Positions 47,466 through 57,501 of a stretch of DNA of 60,733 nt are shown here, one piece after another. The stretch lies in contig MFTO01000005.1 of assembly GCA_001786835.1 (NCBI GenBank), positions 1-60,733 of the forward strand. Direction: 5' to 3'. Position 1 is the first letter of the stretch; each line of letters opens with the position of its first letter. The DNA is from Candidatus Nomurabacteria bacterium RIFCSPHIGHO2_01_FULL_40_20. GTDB taxonomy: Bacteria; Patescibacteriota; Minisyncoccia; Phycocordibacterales; UBA9973. Made by a program: the position numbers and the translations under genes. Below the pieces are notes generated by a model. That model searched no databases, was not told where the DNA came from, and saw only the letters and a list, made by a program, of their open reading frames with translations.

Positions 47466-47921
47466 ATGGCCGTCAAAGAAACAAAAACAAAGAAAACAGT
47501 CTCAACCAAGACGAAGACTTTAAAAGTTGGGGTAAAAGTTCTCAAAGAACCGAAGTCTGCCGAACAGCAAGAGAAAAAAGAAAAAAAATCTGCTCGCGCG
47601 GGAGGGGAAGTGGGAGAAGTGGTTTTGCGCATACGTGTACGAGCGTATGAAAGTAAAATTCTAGACGCTTCTGTAAAACAAATAATTGATACCGCGCTTC
47701 GCTATGACGCCAAGATTGTTGGTCCTACTCCGCTTCCAACCGAGATAAAAAAATACACGGTCAATCGCGCATCTTTTGTTTACAAAAACACTCGAGAACA
47801 ATTTGAAATCAGAGTGCACAAAAGGTTGATTGATATCATTAATCCAAACGCCAAAACTGTGGAAGCGCTTACAAATATGTCTTTGCCTTCTGGAGTGGAT
47901 ATTGATGTAAAAATGTTATGA
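47466..47921 (+). CDS. rpsJ: 30S ribosomal protein S10 with a Lys-rich N-terminal extension of about 50 aa
   Basis: Core LRIRVRAYESKILDASVKQI...GPTPLPTEIKKYTVNRASFVYKNTREQFE. Confidence 0.93.
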   Translation: MAVKETKTKKTVSTKTKTLKVGVKVLKEPKSAEQQEKKEKKSARAGGEVGEVVLRIRVRAYESKILDASVKQIIDTALRYDAKIVGPTPLPTEIKKYTVNRASFVYKNTREQFEIRVHKRLIDIINPNAKTVEALTNMSLPSGVDIDVKML

Positions 47922-47924
47922 GAA

Positions 47925-48046
47925 ATTAATGAGTGAAACGAATATAATTTCCATACCCTGTTAAATAACTTTTGCAAAGCAAAAGTTGGAATCAAAAGAT
48001 TTCATTTAACAGGGTGTAGATTTTAAAAAACTTCACTTCGTTCAGT
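47925..48046 (+). repeat. Structured inverted-repeat element, copy 1, in the rpsJ-rplC spacer
   Basis: P1 ACCCTGTTAAAT/ATTTAACAGGGT, P2 AACTTTTGC-aaa-GCAAAAGTT, P3 GGAATC-aaaa-GATTTC; homologous to 56903-57105. Confidence 0.8.
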
Positions 48047-48059
48047 TAAAAAAATCAAC

Positions 48060-48674
48060 ATGAAATTCATTCTTGGTACAAAAGAGAATATGATGGAGTA
48101 TTTTTCTCCCGAGGGCAAAGTTATTCCGGTGACTGTGGTTTCAGCAGGTCCGGTGACTGTCACTCGAGTTTTTGAAAAATCCAAGGATGGTTACGATGCT
48201 ATCCAAGTAGGGTTTGGCACACAGAAAAAAGAGAGGATAAATAAAGCTCAAATTGGGTCTATGAAGGGAGCGAACTATAAAGTGGTAAAAGAATTCAGAC
48301 TGAAATCTGGCGAAACCAGCGAAGCCAAAGAAGGCGATGTTATTGATGCGTCTTCATTTACTCCGGGCGATAAACTTCAAGTCTCCGGCACTTCCAAAGG
48401 TAAAGGTTTTCAAGGCGTAGTCAAAAGACATGGTTTTAAAGGAGGTCCTCGCACTCACGGGCAAAAACATTCCGAACGAGAACCGGGCTCTATCGGCGGA
48501 GGGCTTCGCACTCACGTCCCGAAAGGCATGCGCATGGCAGGTCGGATGGGTGGAGACAGAATTACAGAGAAGAATTTGAAGGTCGTGTTGGTGGATAAAG
48601 AGAACAACCTCTTGCTTGTACAAGGTGCGTTACCCGGGGTGAAGGGCAGTTTAATTGAGATAGTATCAAAGTAA
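48060..48674 (+). CDS. rplC: 50S ribosomal protein L3
   Basis: S10-operon order; GTSKGKGFQGVVKRHGFKGGPRTHG. Confidence 0.97.
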   Translation: MKFILGTKENMMEYFSPEGKVIPVTVVSAGPVTVTRVFEKSKDGYDAIQVGFGTQKKERINKAQIGSMKGANYKVVKEFRLKSGETSEAKEGDVIDASSFTPGDKLQVSGTSKGKGFQGVVKRHGFKGGPRTHGQKHSEREPGSIGGGLRTHVPKGMRMAGRMGGDRITEKNLKVVLVDKENNLLLVQGALPGVKGSLIEIVSK

Positions 48675-50586: not shown

Positions 50587-50844
50587 ATGAATACAAAAGT
50601 TATTAAATCAAACTTGATAGGTTTTAAAGAGCTTCGCGAAAATGCTGATAAATATATTGATGCTGTCTCGAGAGGCAAATCTTTTACAGTTCTTCGTCGT
50701 TCCAAGCCAATTTTTAATATTACCCCTGTTGATGAATGGGGCGATGAAGGCTTATGGGAAACTGTTGTTGATTTTCGAGATAAAAAAGGCCGGGGGATAA
50801 AGTCCGGAGATCTTTTAAAGATGTTAAAGAAAATCAGTCAGTGA
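50587..50844 (+). CDS. Phd/YefM-type antitoxin-like protein
   Basis: 85 aa; N-terminal pattern (FKELRENADKYIDAVSRGKSFTVLRRSKPIFNITPV) resembles Phd/YefM; precedes a RelE-like gene by 4 nt. Confidence 0.6.
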   Translation: MNTKVIKSNLIGFKELRENADKYIDAVSRGKSFTVLRRSKPIFNITPVDEWGDEGLWETVVDFRDKKGRGIKSGDLLKMLKKISQ

Positions 50845-50848
50845 TGTT

Positions 50849-51082
50849 ATGGACAAGAACGAGAAGTTACTACGAAAACTTTCTAAGGAAGATAGGGATA
50901 GAATAATCCTCGCGGTTGCTCTTATTCATAGTAATGATTTTCAAATGCTAGATTTTAAAAAGTTATCAGGGGTAAAAGATCTGTACAGAGTACGTGTTGG
51001 TAAATTCAGAATTAAATTTAGAACTCATACGACCTATAACGAAATTATAGAAATTGTTCGTCGGAATGATAATACATATTAA
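50849..51082 (+). CDS. RelE/ParE-superfamily toxin-like protein
   Basis: 77 aa; KKLSGVKDLYRVRVGKFRIKFRTH...IIEIVRRNDNTY resembles the RelE core (YRIRVGDYRIIY-type motif). Confidence 0.6.
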   Translation: MDKNEKLLRKLSKEDRDRIILAVALIHSNDFQMLDFKKLSGVKDLYRVRVGKFRIKFRTHTTYNEIIEIVRRNDNTY

Positions 51083-51112: not shown

Positions 51113-51143
51113 TTGACAATATCCATATATTTGCTAGTATAAT
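51113..51143 (+). promoter_or_regulatory. Promoter TTGACA-N16-TAGTAT (TG-extended; alternatively N19-TATAAT) restarting transcription toward rpsS
   Basis: Read directly. Followed by hairpin AAGCTC-gattgg-GAGCTT plus a T-run (51147-51170). Confidence 0.6.
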
Positions 51144-51177
51144 TGCAAGCTCGATTGGGAGCTTTTTGTTTAATTAA

Positions 51178-51222
51178 ATCGCGCTTATAGGACGGTTGCG
51201 CGATATGATTTCGCTAAATCAA
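51178..51222 (+). promoter_or_regulatory. Second copy of the stem plus ATGATTTCGCTAAATCAA module, directly upstream of and in frame with rpsS
   Basis: ATCGCGC-(13 nt)-GCGCGAT then ATGATTTCGCTAAATCAA-ATG. Confidence 0.65.
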
Positions 51223-51576
51223 ATGACAAGATCAATCAAAAAAGGTATATATGTGGATGAACGCTTGCTTGCAAAGATAGCGGGCAAAAATCCGCTTTCA
51301 ACTCCAATGGTAAAAACTTGGAAAAGAGCGTCAGTTATTTCGCCTGAAATGGTTGGTTTCACTTTTGGCGTTTACAATGGCAGAGTGCATGTAGAAGTCT
51401 TGGCCACCGAGGATATGGTAGGTCACCGATTGGGAGAATTTTCACCAACCAAGAAATTCATCAAGCACGGAGGTAAGATGCAGAAAGAGCTTGAGCAAAA
51501 GAAAAAAGAAGCCGAAATAACTCAAGCTAAAACAGCAACGGCTGTAGCGACGGATGCAGGCGTCAAGAAGAAATAA
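51223..51576 (+). CDS. rpsS: 30S ribosomal protein S19 with a C-terminal extension (possible upstream in-frame starts at 51205 and 51196)
   Basis: [16 protein letters not shown]...[23 protein letters not shown]...[10 protein letters not shown]. Confidence 0.95.
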
Positions 51577-54867: not shown

Positions 54868-55365
54868 ATGAAAAATCCATTTGAGGGTATGGGCAGGAAG
54901 ATGCGCAATACATTAGTTGGGGTAGTCGCCTTAGGCGCTACGGCAGGGACTATAGAAGCTCAAACCACTTTGCCGAACAAAGAAGGGATGGAGATAAATG
55001 TGACTGAGAAAACTTCTTGGGCGAAAGATGTCTTAGTAAGTGCGCAGTCTGAGATAAAACATATATCCACGAAAGAAGATTTAATAGCTTTCCAAACTAA
55101 ACATCTAAAACCTTATTTAGATAAAATCGGTATGCTTTCAAGTGGTGCGGAAGAGAAAGCTCACTATTCTATTGAAGACTACAAAGCGATTCTAGAACAG
55201 CTTAAAGCTTTAGGGGAAATATTTAATGGACTAGAAAGCAATATACCAAATTCACAAAGAAACAAAAATTACGATTACTTGATAAGACAACTGACTAGCA
55301 AATCTTCCTACAAGGGTCATAACGACTCAGAGAAGATTTATAACTATTTTGATAATAAGGAATAG
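54868..55365 (+). CDS. Hypothetical secreted protein (165 aa), island gene A
   Basis: Signal-like RNTLVGVVALGATAGTIEAQ, then a predicted helical Lys/Glu-rich body; no motif recognised. Confidence 0.55.
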   Translation: MKNPFEGMGRKMRNTLVGVVALGATAGTIEAQTTLPNKEGMEINVTEKTSWAKDVLVSAQSEIKHISTKEDLIAFQTKHLKPYLDKIGMLSSGAEEKAHYSIEDYKAILEQLKALGEIFNGLESNIPNSQRNKNYDYLIRQLTSKSSYKGHNDSEKIYNYFDNKE

Positions 55366-55479
55366 AGTCTATTGGATTTGTGTTTTTTATGATATAATTA
55401 AAGCGTAAAAAAGAACGAAGGTTTTTATTAAAGTTTGCTATAATAAACGTTATTAACGTATGTGGTCACTATATAAAAT

Positions 55480-55665
55480 ATGGATAAAAAGGCTCTTTTT
55501 TTAAAGACATATGCTAATTTACCACAAGCGTCACGAGAAGAAATTGTCGCTGTGGTGGGTGGTGAACCGTATACTTGGCAATCTGCAAAGCTAGAGATAG
55601 AGCATGATACTTCTATTGGGAAAGGCATTTTAGAACTTTTGGTAAATTTAAAGATACTATCATGA
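55480..55665 (+). CDS. Hypothetical small protein (61 aa), island gene B
   Basis: ORF with ATGA stop/start overlap to gene C; weak similarity to gene C. Confidence 0.45.
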   Translation: MDKKALFLKTYANLPQASREEIVAVVGGEPYTWQSAKLEIEHDTSIGKGILELLVNLKILS

Positions 55666-55919
55666 ATGATAAAAAAGAAAATTCTATAGAAGATATTATT
55701 TTAGATCCAGAACTTAGTGAACAATTAAAAAATCTAGTTCTTGAGCGTGTTAGCATAATGCCAGATACATTACGAATGTCTGTTGGTTCAGATGAACTTA
55801 CAAAAAATGATGTATTAAAACACGTTAAAGAGGGTGATGATATTGGTAATCAGATAATGGAGATGGAACTAGGATTTCTCCGTGATTTAGCAAGTGGCGC
55901 AGTGTATTCTTATGAGTAA
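55662..55919 (+). CDS. Hypothetical small acidic protein (85 aa), island gene C
   Basis: Overlaps gene B (4 nt) and gene D (8 nt), implying translational coupling. Confidence 0.5.
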   Translation: MNDKKENSIEDIILDPELSEQLKNLVLERVSIMPDTLRMSVGSDELTKNDVLKHVKEGDDIGNQIMEMELGFLRDLASGAVYSYE

Positions 55920-56517
55920 ATCAATTCTTGTTACACGTCCAGACCATGACCTTATAACAAAATATTTTTATATTTGGAGTCAGGAAATTGTTGATTTAGC
56001 TAAAAGTAAGAATATAGAAGTTTACGATCTAAAAGGTAAAAAATCAAACGAAAAAGAATTTATCAGCTATATGAGTATTCATTGTCCTTCAATTGTTTTT
56101 TTGAATGGGCATGGTAGTGCGAACATTTTTACTGGATATGACAATCAACCAATAATTGATTCAGATTCTATTTTAAAGGATGCCATAATATATGCTCGAA
56201 GTTGTGAAGTAGGACAAAATCTTGGCTTCAAACTTATAAAGAACGGCGCAAAGACGTTTATTGGCTATAAAAGAAAATTTTTTTGTGGATATACACCCGA
56301 AAAAATAACAAAACCACTCGAAGACAATATTGCCGGTCTTTTTCTAAAACCATCAAACTTAGTTGTGTCAACACTTCTGAAAAATAATAACGCTGAAGAA
56401 GCACATAATCGATCAAGAGGGCAAATGTATAAGAATTTTAGAAGAATGGTTTCAAGTACTGCGACATTTGAAGAATGGAGAACCCATTTTCGGTGGGTTT
56501 TCTATTTATTTATTTGA
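55912..56517 (+). CDS. Hypothetical protein with a caspase/legumain-like His...Cys arrangement (about 201 aa), island gene D
   Basis: Alternating beta/alpha pattern with IVFLNGHGS and IIYARSCEVG after consecutive predicted strands. Start chosen at 55912 (MSKSILV) rather than 55894. Confidence 0.5.
   Translation: MSKSILVTRPDHDLITKYFYIWSQEIVDLAKSKNIEVYDLKGKKSNEKEFISYMSIHCPSIVFLNGHGSANIFTGYDNQPIIDSDSILKDAIIYARSCEVGQNLGFKLIKNGAKTFIGYKRKFFCGYTPEKITKPLEDNIAGLFLKPSNLVVSTLLKNNNAEEAHNRSRGQMYKNFRRMVSSTATFEEWRTHFRWVFYLFI
56481..56512 (+). terminator. Rho-independent terminator at the 3' end of island gene D
   Basis: AACCCA-ttttcgg-TGGGTT followed by TTCTATTTATTTATTT. Confidence 0.65.
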
Positions 56518-56715: not shown

Positions 56716-56901
56716 ATGGCAAAAACATCAGTCATAGCGCGAAACAATAAGAAAAAGAAATTTTCTACTCGGAAGAAGAACCGCTGTTTTCGTTGTGCCC
56801 GAGGGAAAGGTTATATGCGCGACTTTGGTCTTTGTCGCATCTGTTTTAGAGAATTAGCCAATGAAGGCAATCTGCCGGGAGTTAGAAAATCAAGCTGGTA
56901 A
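56716..56901 (+). CDS. rpsN: 30S ribosomal protein S14, zinc-binding type Z (61 aa)
   Basis: [25 protein letters not shown]...LPGVRKSSW. Confidence 0.95.
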
Positions 56902-56902
56902 G

Positions 56903-57105
56903 TGAAATTTAATGAGTGAAACGAATATAAATTTCCTTACCTTGTTAAATAAATTTTTCAAAGAAAAATTTGTCATGTGGAAGAAATAAATAGAGATATA
57001 GAAAATAATATAAAGTATGAAAAAATTATCAACAAATAAAAAAGAACAGATAGACCACATGACATTTAACAGGGTGTCTGTTTTAATAGTCGCTTCGCTT
57101 CTTTA
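56903..57105 (+). repeat. Structured inverted-repeat element, copy 2, in the rpsN-rpsH spacer, with an expanded third helix
   Basis: P1 ACCTTGTTAAAT/ATTTAACAGGGT (one G:U pair), P2 AAATTTTTC-aaa-GAAAAATTT, P3 TGTCATGTGG...CCACATGACA (56971-57064). Confidence 0.8.
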
Positions 57106-57114
57106 AAACTAGCC

Positions 57115-57501
57115 ATGGATCCAATTTCAAACATGATAATAATGATAAAAAACGGTTCTACCGCAGGCAAAGCGACAGTATCTTTTCCATACTCAAAAAT
57201 TAAAAACGCGGTAGCCTTATGTCTTCAAAAAGAAGGGTATGTCAAAGACGTCGCAAAAAAAGTTAAAAAAGACCATCCGGTTTTAGAAATTGAATTGGTA
57301 TATACAGACAAGAAGCCAAAAATTTCCGGCGTAGAAAGAATTTCAAAACAATCCAGACGTGTTTATTTCGGGATGCGCGATATCCATACAGTTCTAGGTG
57401 GTAAAGGCGTTCTTGTGCTCTCAACTCCAAAGGGGATACTCTCGGGGCGCGACGCAAGGCGCGAACAAGTTGGAGGCGAAGCATTGTTTAAAATTTGGTA
57501 G
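57115..57501 (+). CDS. rpsH: 30S ribosomal protein S8
   Basis: MDPISNMIIMIKNG...; GGEALFKIW C-terminus. Confidence 0.96.
   Translation: MDPISNMIIMIKNGSTAGKATVSFPYSKIKNAVALCLQKEGYVKDVAKKVKKDHPVLEIELVYTDKKPKISGVERISKQSRRVYFGMRDIHTVLGGKGVLVLSTPKGILSGRDARREQVGGEALFKIW

Follow-up and report, generated by a model that had tools for sequence, protein, structure and literature searches.

A modular, nearly palindromic repeat family abutting start codons in Candidatus Nomurabacteria, with two copies in spacers between ribosomal-protein genes

Two spacers between ribosomal-protein genes of Candidatus Nomurabacteria bacterium RIFCSPHIGHO2_01_FULL_40_20, rpsJ/rplC and rpsN/rpsH, are filled by copies of an element with three helices and compensatory substitutions, and the locus raises the question of whether this element is an RNA that acts on the mRNA carrying it or a dispersed DNA repeat. 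The window, that is, the whole stretch of DNA that was analysed, comprises 60,733 nt of contig MFTO01000005.1 (GCA_001786835.1) on the forward strand. A first-pass annotation had favoured a functional structure of the mRNA strand, perhaps a processing or stability element or a regulator that binds a ribosomal protein, rather than a dead miniature transposable element (MITE). Based on comparisons across the genus, the element is very probably a modular, nearly palindromic DNA repeat of the MITE/REPIN kind and not an RNA specific to ribosomal proteins. As to what it does, we put forward tentatively, and with the balance somewhat against the proposal, that it may act as a “stop-hairpin-start” cassette between genes.

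Two window copies and a wider family

The host genome is a metagenome-assembled genome of the Patescibacteria (Candidate Phyla Radiation, CPR) of 550,711 bases in 21 contigs, 78% complete and with ~40% G+C. Among named proteins, its RplC (L3) is nearest to records of Candidatus Nomurabacteria or Saccharibacteria (75% identity); records under names such as Patescibacteria group and Paceibacterota come next, at no more than 66%. DNA of the organism is present in groundwater and soil metagenomes.

Both copies lie where the first-pass annotation had placed them, and a 20-nt segment of the 5′ side occurs exactly twice in the window and in none of 100 shuffles. Helices P1 and P2, as well as P3 of copy 1, are paired as first described, and the T:G pair in P1 and the doubly compensated P2 of copy 2 are present (Table 1). 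Two features had escaped the first-pass annotation, the P3 stem of copy 2 and, in each copy, an outer helix in which the 5′ arm pairs with the 3′ arm. The predicted folds reach −40.2 kcal/mol for copy 1 (z −7.3 against shuffled sequence) and −42.0 kcal/mol for copy 2 (z −4.2). Read from the sequence, the 5′ arm of copy 1 holds TAA and TGA in two reading frames. The tract before the ATG consists of AAAAT plus 4 nt in copy 1 and AAAAC plus 5 nt in copy 2, a slight departure from the family mode, and large P3-loop insertions like that of copy 2 are also found in L066, L047, and L045.

Table 1. Positions in the window of the two repeat copies, their parts, and the genes on either side
Feature	Position	Strand	Remarks
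rpsJ (S10), upstream of copy 1	47466-47921	+	Pfam Ribosomal_S10, E 3.3e-30
Copy 1 of the repeat	47922-48052	+	Fills the rpsJ/rplC spacer; covariance model R1, 109.9 bits
Copy 1, 5′ outer arm (inverted-repeat-like)	47922-47954	+	Begins 1 nt past the rpsJ stop codon
Copy 1, P1 5′ strand (12 nt)	47955-47966	+	Almost invariant in the family
Copy 1, hairpin P2	47967-47987	+	9 bp, AAA loop
Copy 1, hairpin P3	47988-48003	+	6 bp including one G:U, AAAA loop
Copy 1, P1 3′ strand	48004-48015	+	Pairs with 47955-47966
Copy 1, 3′ outer arm and G-free, A-rich tract	48016-48059	+	Reaches the rplC ATG at 48060
rplC (L3), downstream of copy 1	48060-48674	+	Pfam Ribosomal_L3, E 5.3e-15
rpsN (S14), upstream of copy 2	56716-56901	+	Pfam Ribosomal_S14, E 2.1e-22
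Copy 2 of the repeat	56905-57110	+	Fills the rpsN/rpsH spacer; covariance model R1, 84.3 bits
Copy 2, P1 5′ strand	56939-56950	+	Pairs with 57064-57075; single T opposite G
Copy 2, hairpin P2	56951-56971	+	Two compensated positions relative to copy 1
Copy 2, P3	56972-57063	+	9-bp stem (56972-56980 with 57055-57063); 74-nt A-rich loop insertion
Copy 2, P1 3′ strand	57064-57075	+	
Copy 2, 3′ outer arm and pre-start tract	57076-57114	+	Ends at the rpsH ATG, 57115
rpsH (S8), downstream of copy 2	57115-57501	+	Pfam Ribosomal_S8, E 2.1e-36

The genome holds five copies of the element on three contigs. Besides the two in the window, a third stands between a DsbD_2-family gene and a cupredoxin-like gene, a fourth between a methyltransferase gene and a solute-binding-protein gene, and a fifth, whose inner module is inverted, upstream of an S1-domain gene. 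The genes downstream of the five copies (rplC, rpsH, cupredoxin-like, solute-binding-protein, and S1-domain) are unrelated, and the idea of a regulon was rejected on this ground. The ribosomal operon thus accounts for only two of the five genomic copies, and at least 66 different genes follow the element across the family, so that the proposed regulator binding a ribosomal protein finds no support.

Of 150 other genomes of the genus, 47 were matched by a covariance model built from the five genomic copies (R1), each with up to ~10 copies when both strands are counted. This search of relatives, which the first-pass annotation had called for, recovered a family with genuine compensatory changes. 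By BLASTN, 11 of 36 genomes of the genus gave matches, as did genomes from 5 of 24 further families in the order. Across the genus the distribution is patchy. We examined 107 copies, of which 46 came from BLASTN or R1 loci and 61 were additional (60 targeted, one further in L135); some tallies include the unpublished genomes G084, G147, and G155, although none of the conclusions rests solely on these. The element is non-coding: only 59 of 103 copies have an ATG in the 5′ arm and there is therefore no conserved open reading frame (ORF), and a small ORF in the 5′ arm, considered as a candidate, was dropped since its ATG is not conserved.

Modular anatomy and pairing on both strands

The element is ~125 bp long and is built, in order, of a 5′ arm of ~34 nt, P1 (12 bp), P2 (9 bp), P3 (3–7 bp), the complementary strand P1′, and a 3′ arm of ~34 nt, its two inverted halves forming one long hairpin. 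The outer arms are an imperfect inverted repeat in which 74.9% of cells are paired over 16 modelled positions in 65 copies. P1 is nearly invariant, with a few doubly compensated variants, and in the helix that contains it (helix 3, the 12-bp P1 with adjoining pairs) 7 of 16 modelled pairs are invariant, with pairing in 90.3% of cells. One pair of P2 is UA in 29, CG in 23, and AU in 10 of the 65 copies, and the P3 hairpin takes 46 distinct sequences among 76 classifiable copies.

Over the 65 best family matches, 85.7% of cells pair, and changes on both sides are seen in 21 of 46 modelled pairs, confirming that the compensatory substitutions first noticed between the two window copies are genuine. 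The covariation score is 0.136, compared to 0.106 in shuffles (reached by 0 of 500) and no more than 0.060 when pairing partners are slid, in an alignment of 65 members that was fitted to the model and leans towards structure.

The inner module sits in either orientation or is replaced, while the arms are polar relative to the gene. In eight copies the module scored best on the strand opposite to the usual one, and at least two more are inverted relative to the gene; the hairpin loops of the inverted modules are exact reverse complements of the usual loops. The same arms enclose a quite different module of like design, with a 13-bp stem and two hairpins, in L041 and L029, and another stem in L076. 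At rpsJ/rplC, four genomes carry a relative of 65–67 nt with the 5′ arm and a simple hairpin, a combination seen in L078, L087, L099, and L101, and nested and partial copies also occur. A fixed three-helix RNA, as first proposed, does not describe a family in which the P2/P3 module is inverted in ~10 of ~76 classifiable copies and some members carry unrelated modules.

Pairing is moreover symmetric between the strands. In 97 copies (6 of 103 were left out at lengths above 140 nt), the mean fold energy is −36.8 kcal/mol for the sense and −36.7 kcal/mol for the antisense strand, with the sense strand favoured in 51 copies and the antisense strand in 46. Predicted G:U pairs number 258 of 4137 on the sense and 237 of 4032 on the antisense strand. 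The equal pairing of both strands indicates that complementarity is kept as Watson-Crick pairing of DNA and not as a fold of one RNA strand, and the argument from a G:U pair possible only in the sense RNA, which had carried much of the first-pass reading, fails at the level of the family. In a palindrome of DNA, template switching (quasipalindrome mutagenesis) can by itself produce compensatory changes, without selection for structure.

The P1/P2/P3 junction has no unpaired conserved bases able to form a binding pocket. Two other candidates were dropped by eye: a hammerhead-like core, for which the junction lacks an unpaired core, and integron attC-like core sites, the core-like heptamers being in reverse order to those of attC.

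Phasing to start codons, polymorphism and constraint

Almost all copies (103 of 107) abut the start codon of a gene. An ATG of a long ORF follows the 3′ end of the model by 0–9 nt in 94 copies, by exactly 5 nt in 65 of them and by 4 nt in 11. In nine more, the ATG is confined to the opposite side, at 5 nt in five of them, and the arms there read in the direction of the gene, so that only the inner module is turned; the other four have no adjoining long-ORF ATG on either side. A fixed orientation relative to transcription, which the first-pass annotation had expected of a functional RNA, is therefore found for the outer arms with respect to the downstream gene and breaks down for the inner module.

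The downstream genes fall into 66 clusters with many functions. From their N-terminal peptides, several products would be ribosomal proteins S12, L11, L27, S14, L2, and L9, and other genes are putatively murG, mraZ, dnaJ, topA, serS, and similar. By the same reading, the N-termini look native to proteins of these kinds, and RplC shares its N-terminus with relatives without the element; the ATG after the element is thus the gene's own start. Conservation extends over the 13 bases that precede the ATG, which are also G-free (junction logo of 103 copies). In the genome, AAAAT ending at −6 precedes 6 of 525 ORFs, and three of these are the element itself; since the pentamer is so rare at this position elsewhere, the junction is carried by the element, and the same count rejects a native target sequence before the ATG.

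On the 5′ side, a co-directional ORF precedes 50 of 103 copies, and in 36 of these its stop codon falls between −11 and +3 nt relative to the element; in 12 copies the stop of the upstream gene is a TAA within the 5′ arm. About 20 of the 103 copies come after a run of T, mostly with a hairpin before it, and 12 copies have a host-type promoter whose last T lies 3–10 nt before the 5′ end of the element.

These junctions are set in a genome with distinctive gene starts, in which a Shine-Dalgarno-like motif is found at only 45 of 418 long ORFs. In 61 of 525 ORFs the promoter-like motif TGnTAnnnT ends with its final T at position −7 relative to the ATG, compared to 0–15 at other scanned positions, and it is accompanied by a weak TT(G/T) near −35 and a pyrimidine at −1. 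Such a sharp peak points to leaderless mRNAs; the parts of the literature that our search returned contain no paper describing a leaderless-mRNA signature in Patescibacteria/CPR. AAAAT ending at −1 is found at 22 of 525 ORFs, compared to ~3–15 at other positions. The pentamer is conserved at the left flank of the element and stands at both its ends, alike in all copies, where it could represent a duplicated target, just the target, or sequence belonging to the element.

Searches for a mobilising enzyme centred on Y1_Tnp (RAYT-like) genes. Of 150 genomes of the genus, 109 carry such genes; the window's own genome (78% complete) gave no match. Among the matches listed, Y1 genes are present in 42 of 47 genomes with the element and in 67 of 103 without, a weak association among related genomes. 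The element was absent from 30 Y1_Tnp loci at E up to 0.1, and comparison of the arm sequences with these 30 loci returned only 13–21-nt matches at chance level. Y1_Tnp was therefore set aside as a linked mobiliser, being common in the genus but neither adjoining the element nor sharing its arms. RVT_1 matches were seen in three of five element-rich genomes.

At the two ribosomal spacers, the element is present or absent between species, the comparison being one of species and not of members of one population. The rpsJ/rplC spacer measures no more than 31 nt in 17 of 29 other genomes, and neither the P1 module nor the full element is present in any of the 29 (one row, L084, is the unpublished genome G155). 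The rpsN/rpsH spacer measures 7–137 nt in 28 other genomes and 7–46 nt in 19 of them, and by inspection neither the P1 motif nor the full element was seen in any of the 28. Palindromic inserts of other, unrelated kinds occur at both spacers in some genomes. Contigs from four metagenome runs, compared with the window, break at the repeats and show no cleanly excised version for this strain; a short rpsN/rpsH spacer was seen in one related organism. Inverted-repeat arms, dispersed copies, and presence or absence between species at the same spacer are hallmarks of MITE/REPIN-like elements, and the earlier choice of a functional RNA over a MITE is thus not supported.

Copies within one genome are no more than 86.5% identical (mean 72%), which argues against a recent burst or movement, and copies at orthologous sites in different species reach 94–97% identity. 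We compared 59 orthologous pairs from different genomes (N-terminal identity of at least 0.55, elements of no more than 140 nt, at least 250 nt of coding sequence), in which identity averages 0.76 over the element and 0.72 over the opening 300 nt of the coding sequence after it. In 40 of the 59 pairs, which are not independent of one another, the element is better conserved than that sequence, with the best pairs at 0.97 vs. 0.68 and 0.94 vs. 0.69. Orthologous copies as conserved as the adjoining coding sequence suggest that the element is under constraint, and in this respect the first-pass annotation was right that it is not decaying junk.

Competing readings and relation to known repeats

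The comparisons establish that the copies form a family, what its anatomy is, how it is phased and oriented, that it is conserved, that both strands pair alike, and that copies are present or absent between species; the way of insertion and any effect on transcription or translation are inferred. Our preferred reading is that a family of MITE/REPIN-like DNA palindromes has been kept as a “stop-hairpin-start” intergenic cassette, a statement that, taken as a whole, we regard as evenly poised between right and wrong. The 5′ arm stands at the stop codon of the upstream gene or itself provides it, and TAA and TGA in two frames would serve to end the upstream frame. When the element is co-transcribed, the arms and P1 would fold back and loop out ~110 nt, leaving an unstructured, G-free, A-rich tract before the native AUG, at which initiation or reinitiation could still take place without a Shine-Dalgarno sequence in an organism that otherwise appears to rely on leaderless mRNAs and tight spacing. 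On this view it would be understandable that even ribosomal operons tolerate the element and retain it. These compact genomes have very short spacers, and where a copy is present it now occupies the entire distance from one gene to the next. Arrival may have been by strand-specific insertion 3′ of AAAAT, of the single-strand kind (Y1/HUH, IS200/IS605- or RAYT-like), as suggested by the conserved AAAAT at the left flank, the frequency of this pentamer in the genome, which is highest directly before start codons, and the wide distribution of Y1_Tnp. The negative outcome of the comparisons with Y1_Tnp loci speaks against such an arrival. A hairpin that functions as RNA should tolerate G:U better than A:C, and the RNA part of the cassette model therefore fits poorly with the absence of a G:U bias.

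The main rival to the cassette is a portable promoter, in which an outward −10-like box of the 3′ arm (wAAAAT, −11 to −6) would set off transcription at the A of the ATG and so give a leaderless mRNA; we consider this unlikely. Only a leaderless start demands that an upstream DNA element keep a spacing to the start codon exact to a single base, and no other function would account for such phasing through selection alone. The host does use start-phased promoters, as the TGnTAnnnT peak indicates. Within the box, positions 2 and 6 of a −10 hexamer are matched by A at −10 in 85 and by T at −6 in 84 of the 103 copies, a pyrimidine at −1 precedes the A in 101 of 103 copies, and a second box, TATAnT, lies at −30 to −25. 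The copies that come after a T-run would leave no room for another promoter, and Correia elements of Neisseria are reported to make promoters at their ends (PMC2649163). However, the box lies one base too close to the start: host TAnnnT motifs number 101 at −7 and 19 at −6, whereas in the element −7 is A in 95 of 103 copies and the T falls at −6. The TG extension found in 61 of the 101 host promoters is lacking from the element, and a simple scan for sigma-70 promoters and terminators returned nothing on the + strand at either window copy. In the 12 copies with a canonical host promoter 3–10 nt upstream, the element would be a transcribed leader, and copies within ribosomal-protein operons need no promoter of their own.

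We likewise hold it unlikely that the element is a mobile cassette targeted to start codons, which would insert by a Y1/HUH-type mechanism, in one orientation, 3′ of AAAAT and directly at a gene's first base, carrying with it stop codons, a hairpin, and either a promoter or a tract for initiation. Several unrelated palindromic families of the genus appear to do likewise, since in L282, L294, and L285 the last two bases of an insert form the AT of the rpsH ATG. If true, such an element would rewire the starting of single genes, even within ribosomal operons, in a Shine-Dalgarno-poor lineage with leaderless mRNAs.

A selfish or neutral palindrome that survives only where it is harmless, in the few spacer bases before starts, and owes its palindromy to template-switch repair rather than to selection, is distinctly improbable. 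The patchy distribution, the unrelated palindromic inserts in the same two spacers of other genomes, the symmetric pairing on both strands, and the nested and partial copies are all consistent with it. Yet the element outdoes the neighbouring coding sequence in conservation in most orthologous pairs, its copies are undecayed although there has been no recent proliferation, and survivorship in short spacers does not predict that a 5-nt junction and its sequence should be kept before 66 different genes.

Very improbable, finally, is a dedicated cis-acting RNA that folds into three helices on the mRNA strand and acts in processing or stability, or as a regulator to which a protein binds: strong folding, covariation above both controls, arms in fixed orientation to the gene, conservation at least that of coding sequence, and the 12 copies in which a host promoter would start the transcript at the first bases of the element and create a 5′-terminal stem speak for it, but it is countered by the strand-symmetric pairing and G:U counts, the inverted or replaced inner modules, the unrelated downstream genes, a junction without bases for a binding pocket, and an Rfam search, called for by the first-pass annotation, that at gathering scores found only five tRNAs in the window and in permissive mode nothing better than E 0.99.

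Interspersed palindromic repeats are well known in proteobacteria, and our literature search found no description of such repeats in genomes of the Candidate Phyla Radiation and nothing relevant on MITEs with leaderless promoters; we know of no interspersed palindromic repeat that keeps a set distance to start codons. Should the phasing stem from function or targeted insertion, the element would offer a handle on gene starts in bacteria without Shine-Dalgarno signals and would explain how 0.6-Mb genomes tolerate 125-bp inserts in ribosomal operons. It marks true start codons and may thus aid annotation. For the discovery of RNA motifs it carries a warning, in that a DNA palindrome family mimics covariation, and even single G:U pairs, without a strand-specific RNA.

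Like REP/REPIN sequences, the element is a non-coding, extragenic hairpin of ~100 nt made of two inverted halves, with pairing as a property of the DNA, and RAYT-like Y1_Tnp genes are abundant in the genus. We know of no start-codon phasing among REPINs. They differ from the element in number, with hundreds of copies compared to 5–10 per genome, and in the REPIN-RAYT pairing, there being no cognate RAYT in this genome and none of the 30 Y1 loci being flanked by the element. REPINs are described as mostly vertically inherited and long-lived (10.1101/2022.05.22.493013, 10.1101/2021.07.10.451892), in which the element resembles them. REPs are described as carrying a GTAG tag (PMC3733652), whereas GTAG is possible in about a fifth of the arms here, the completing T being present in only 21 of 103 copies.

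By size and behaviour, the element also resembles the Correia elements (CREE), which are MITE-like, ~100–150 bp long, and gene-adjacent, with inverted-repeat ends and a conserved core. CREE have a TA target duplication and an IHF site. They are not known to be phased to start codons, and the inner module here is invertible and exchangeable. In Neisseria, CREE are reported to be co-transcribed, to have promoters at their ends, and to be a substrate of RNase III (PMC2649163). ERIC elements, of another phylum, are likewise imperfect palindromes of nearly equal size, the comparison being one of size and behaviour. Variants of ERIC carry internal insertions, and to our knowledge ERIC elements do not abut start codons. 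ERIC/RU-1 is described as a 127-bp imperfect palindrome in transcribed intergenic regions of enterobacteria (PMC2759123).

The likeness to IS200/IS605 would lie in the way of insertion, in fixed orientation 3′ of a short sequence (here the left-flank AAAAT), with no duplication needed and with hairpins near the ends; in contrast to those elements, no transposase is linked, and AAAAT is also found near the right end. BIMEs of E. coli and BOX elements of pneumococcus combine modules in varying orders and orientations. Their modules are unrelated in sequence to those described here, and the outer arms of our element are polar relative to the gene. The element shares their modular design, joining its arms to P1/P2/P3 or to another three-way module, or its 5′ arm alone to a hairpin.

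Ribosomal gene spacers in the window

Upstream of rpsS we identified a promoter-like site, in which TTGACA is followed after 16 nt by TAGTAT, itself preceded by TG. A hairpin with a T run (window 51147-51164) lies immediately 3′ of this site, and a second hairpin, of 7 bp, stands between it and the adjoining rpsS start codon. This promoter and hairpin recur in three other genomes (G156, G033 and G007), where a complete copy of the repeat (the ~125-bp palindromic element) lies between them and rpsS. In the window, that position is instead occupied by 54 nt, one end of which resembles an arm.

The ribosomal gene cluster also contains other open reading frames. Two small ORFs separate rplB from rpsS, and searches found a weak Phd/YefM antitoxin match for the first of them (E 5.2e-05, below the Pfam cut-off); the two may form a toxin-antitoxin pair within the S10 operon. 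Between rplE and rpsN the cluster is broken by ~1.7 kb encoding four ORFs, none of which was assigned to a family in Pfam searches.

Features located in the window and in related loci
Feature	Location	Strand	Context
Two small ORFs	window 50587-51082		between rplB and rpsS
Promoter-like site and two hairpins	window 51113-51222		directly before rpsS (ATG at 51223)
Four ORFs (165, 61, 85 and 207 aa)	window 54868-56517		between rplE and rpsN
Nested or tandem partial repeat copies	L045:2650-2822; L145:531-614; 5′ flank of L164:401
RAYT-like Y1_Tnp gene, example	L051:235-927	(-)

Nested copies and a second palindromic family

Among the sites of partial copies in loci L045, L145 and L164, we observed nesting, in which the inner module of one copy contains the 5′ arm of another, as well as half-elements (P3, one P1 strand and a short arm) immediately upstream of full copies. 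The rpsN|rpsH spacers of three further loci, L282 (G133), L294 (G028) and L285 (G112), hold an insert from another palindromic family, and the final two bases of this insert supply the AT of the rpsH ATG. The hexamer ATGGAT flanks the insert on both sides in L282 and L294. In L041 and L029, a module of this kind lies nested within the repeat's own arms.

Transposase genes and gene starts

RAYT-like Y1_Tnp genes, whose products measure ~210-250 aa and carry HUH and Tyr motifs, are present in 109 of 150 genomes of the genus, and a single genome of 0.5-1 Mb can have as many as 14 matches; a search of the window's own assembly, which is 78% complete, found none. RVT_1 (reverse-transcriptase) matches occur in three of the five element-rich genomes (G166, G122 and G172).

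Across the whole genome that includes the window, 61 of 525 ORFs are preceded by a TGnTAnnnT motif whose final T lies at -7 relative to the ATG, and Shine-Dalgarno-like motifs were found in only 45 of 418. This phasing, together with the scarcity of Shine-Dalgarno-like motifs, is a sequence signature that points to leaderless mRNAs.
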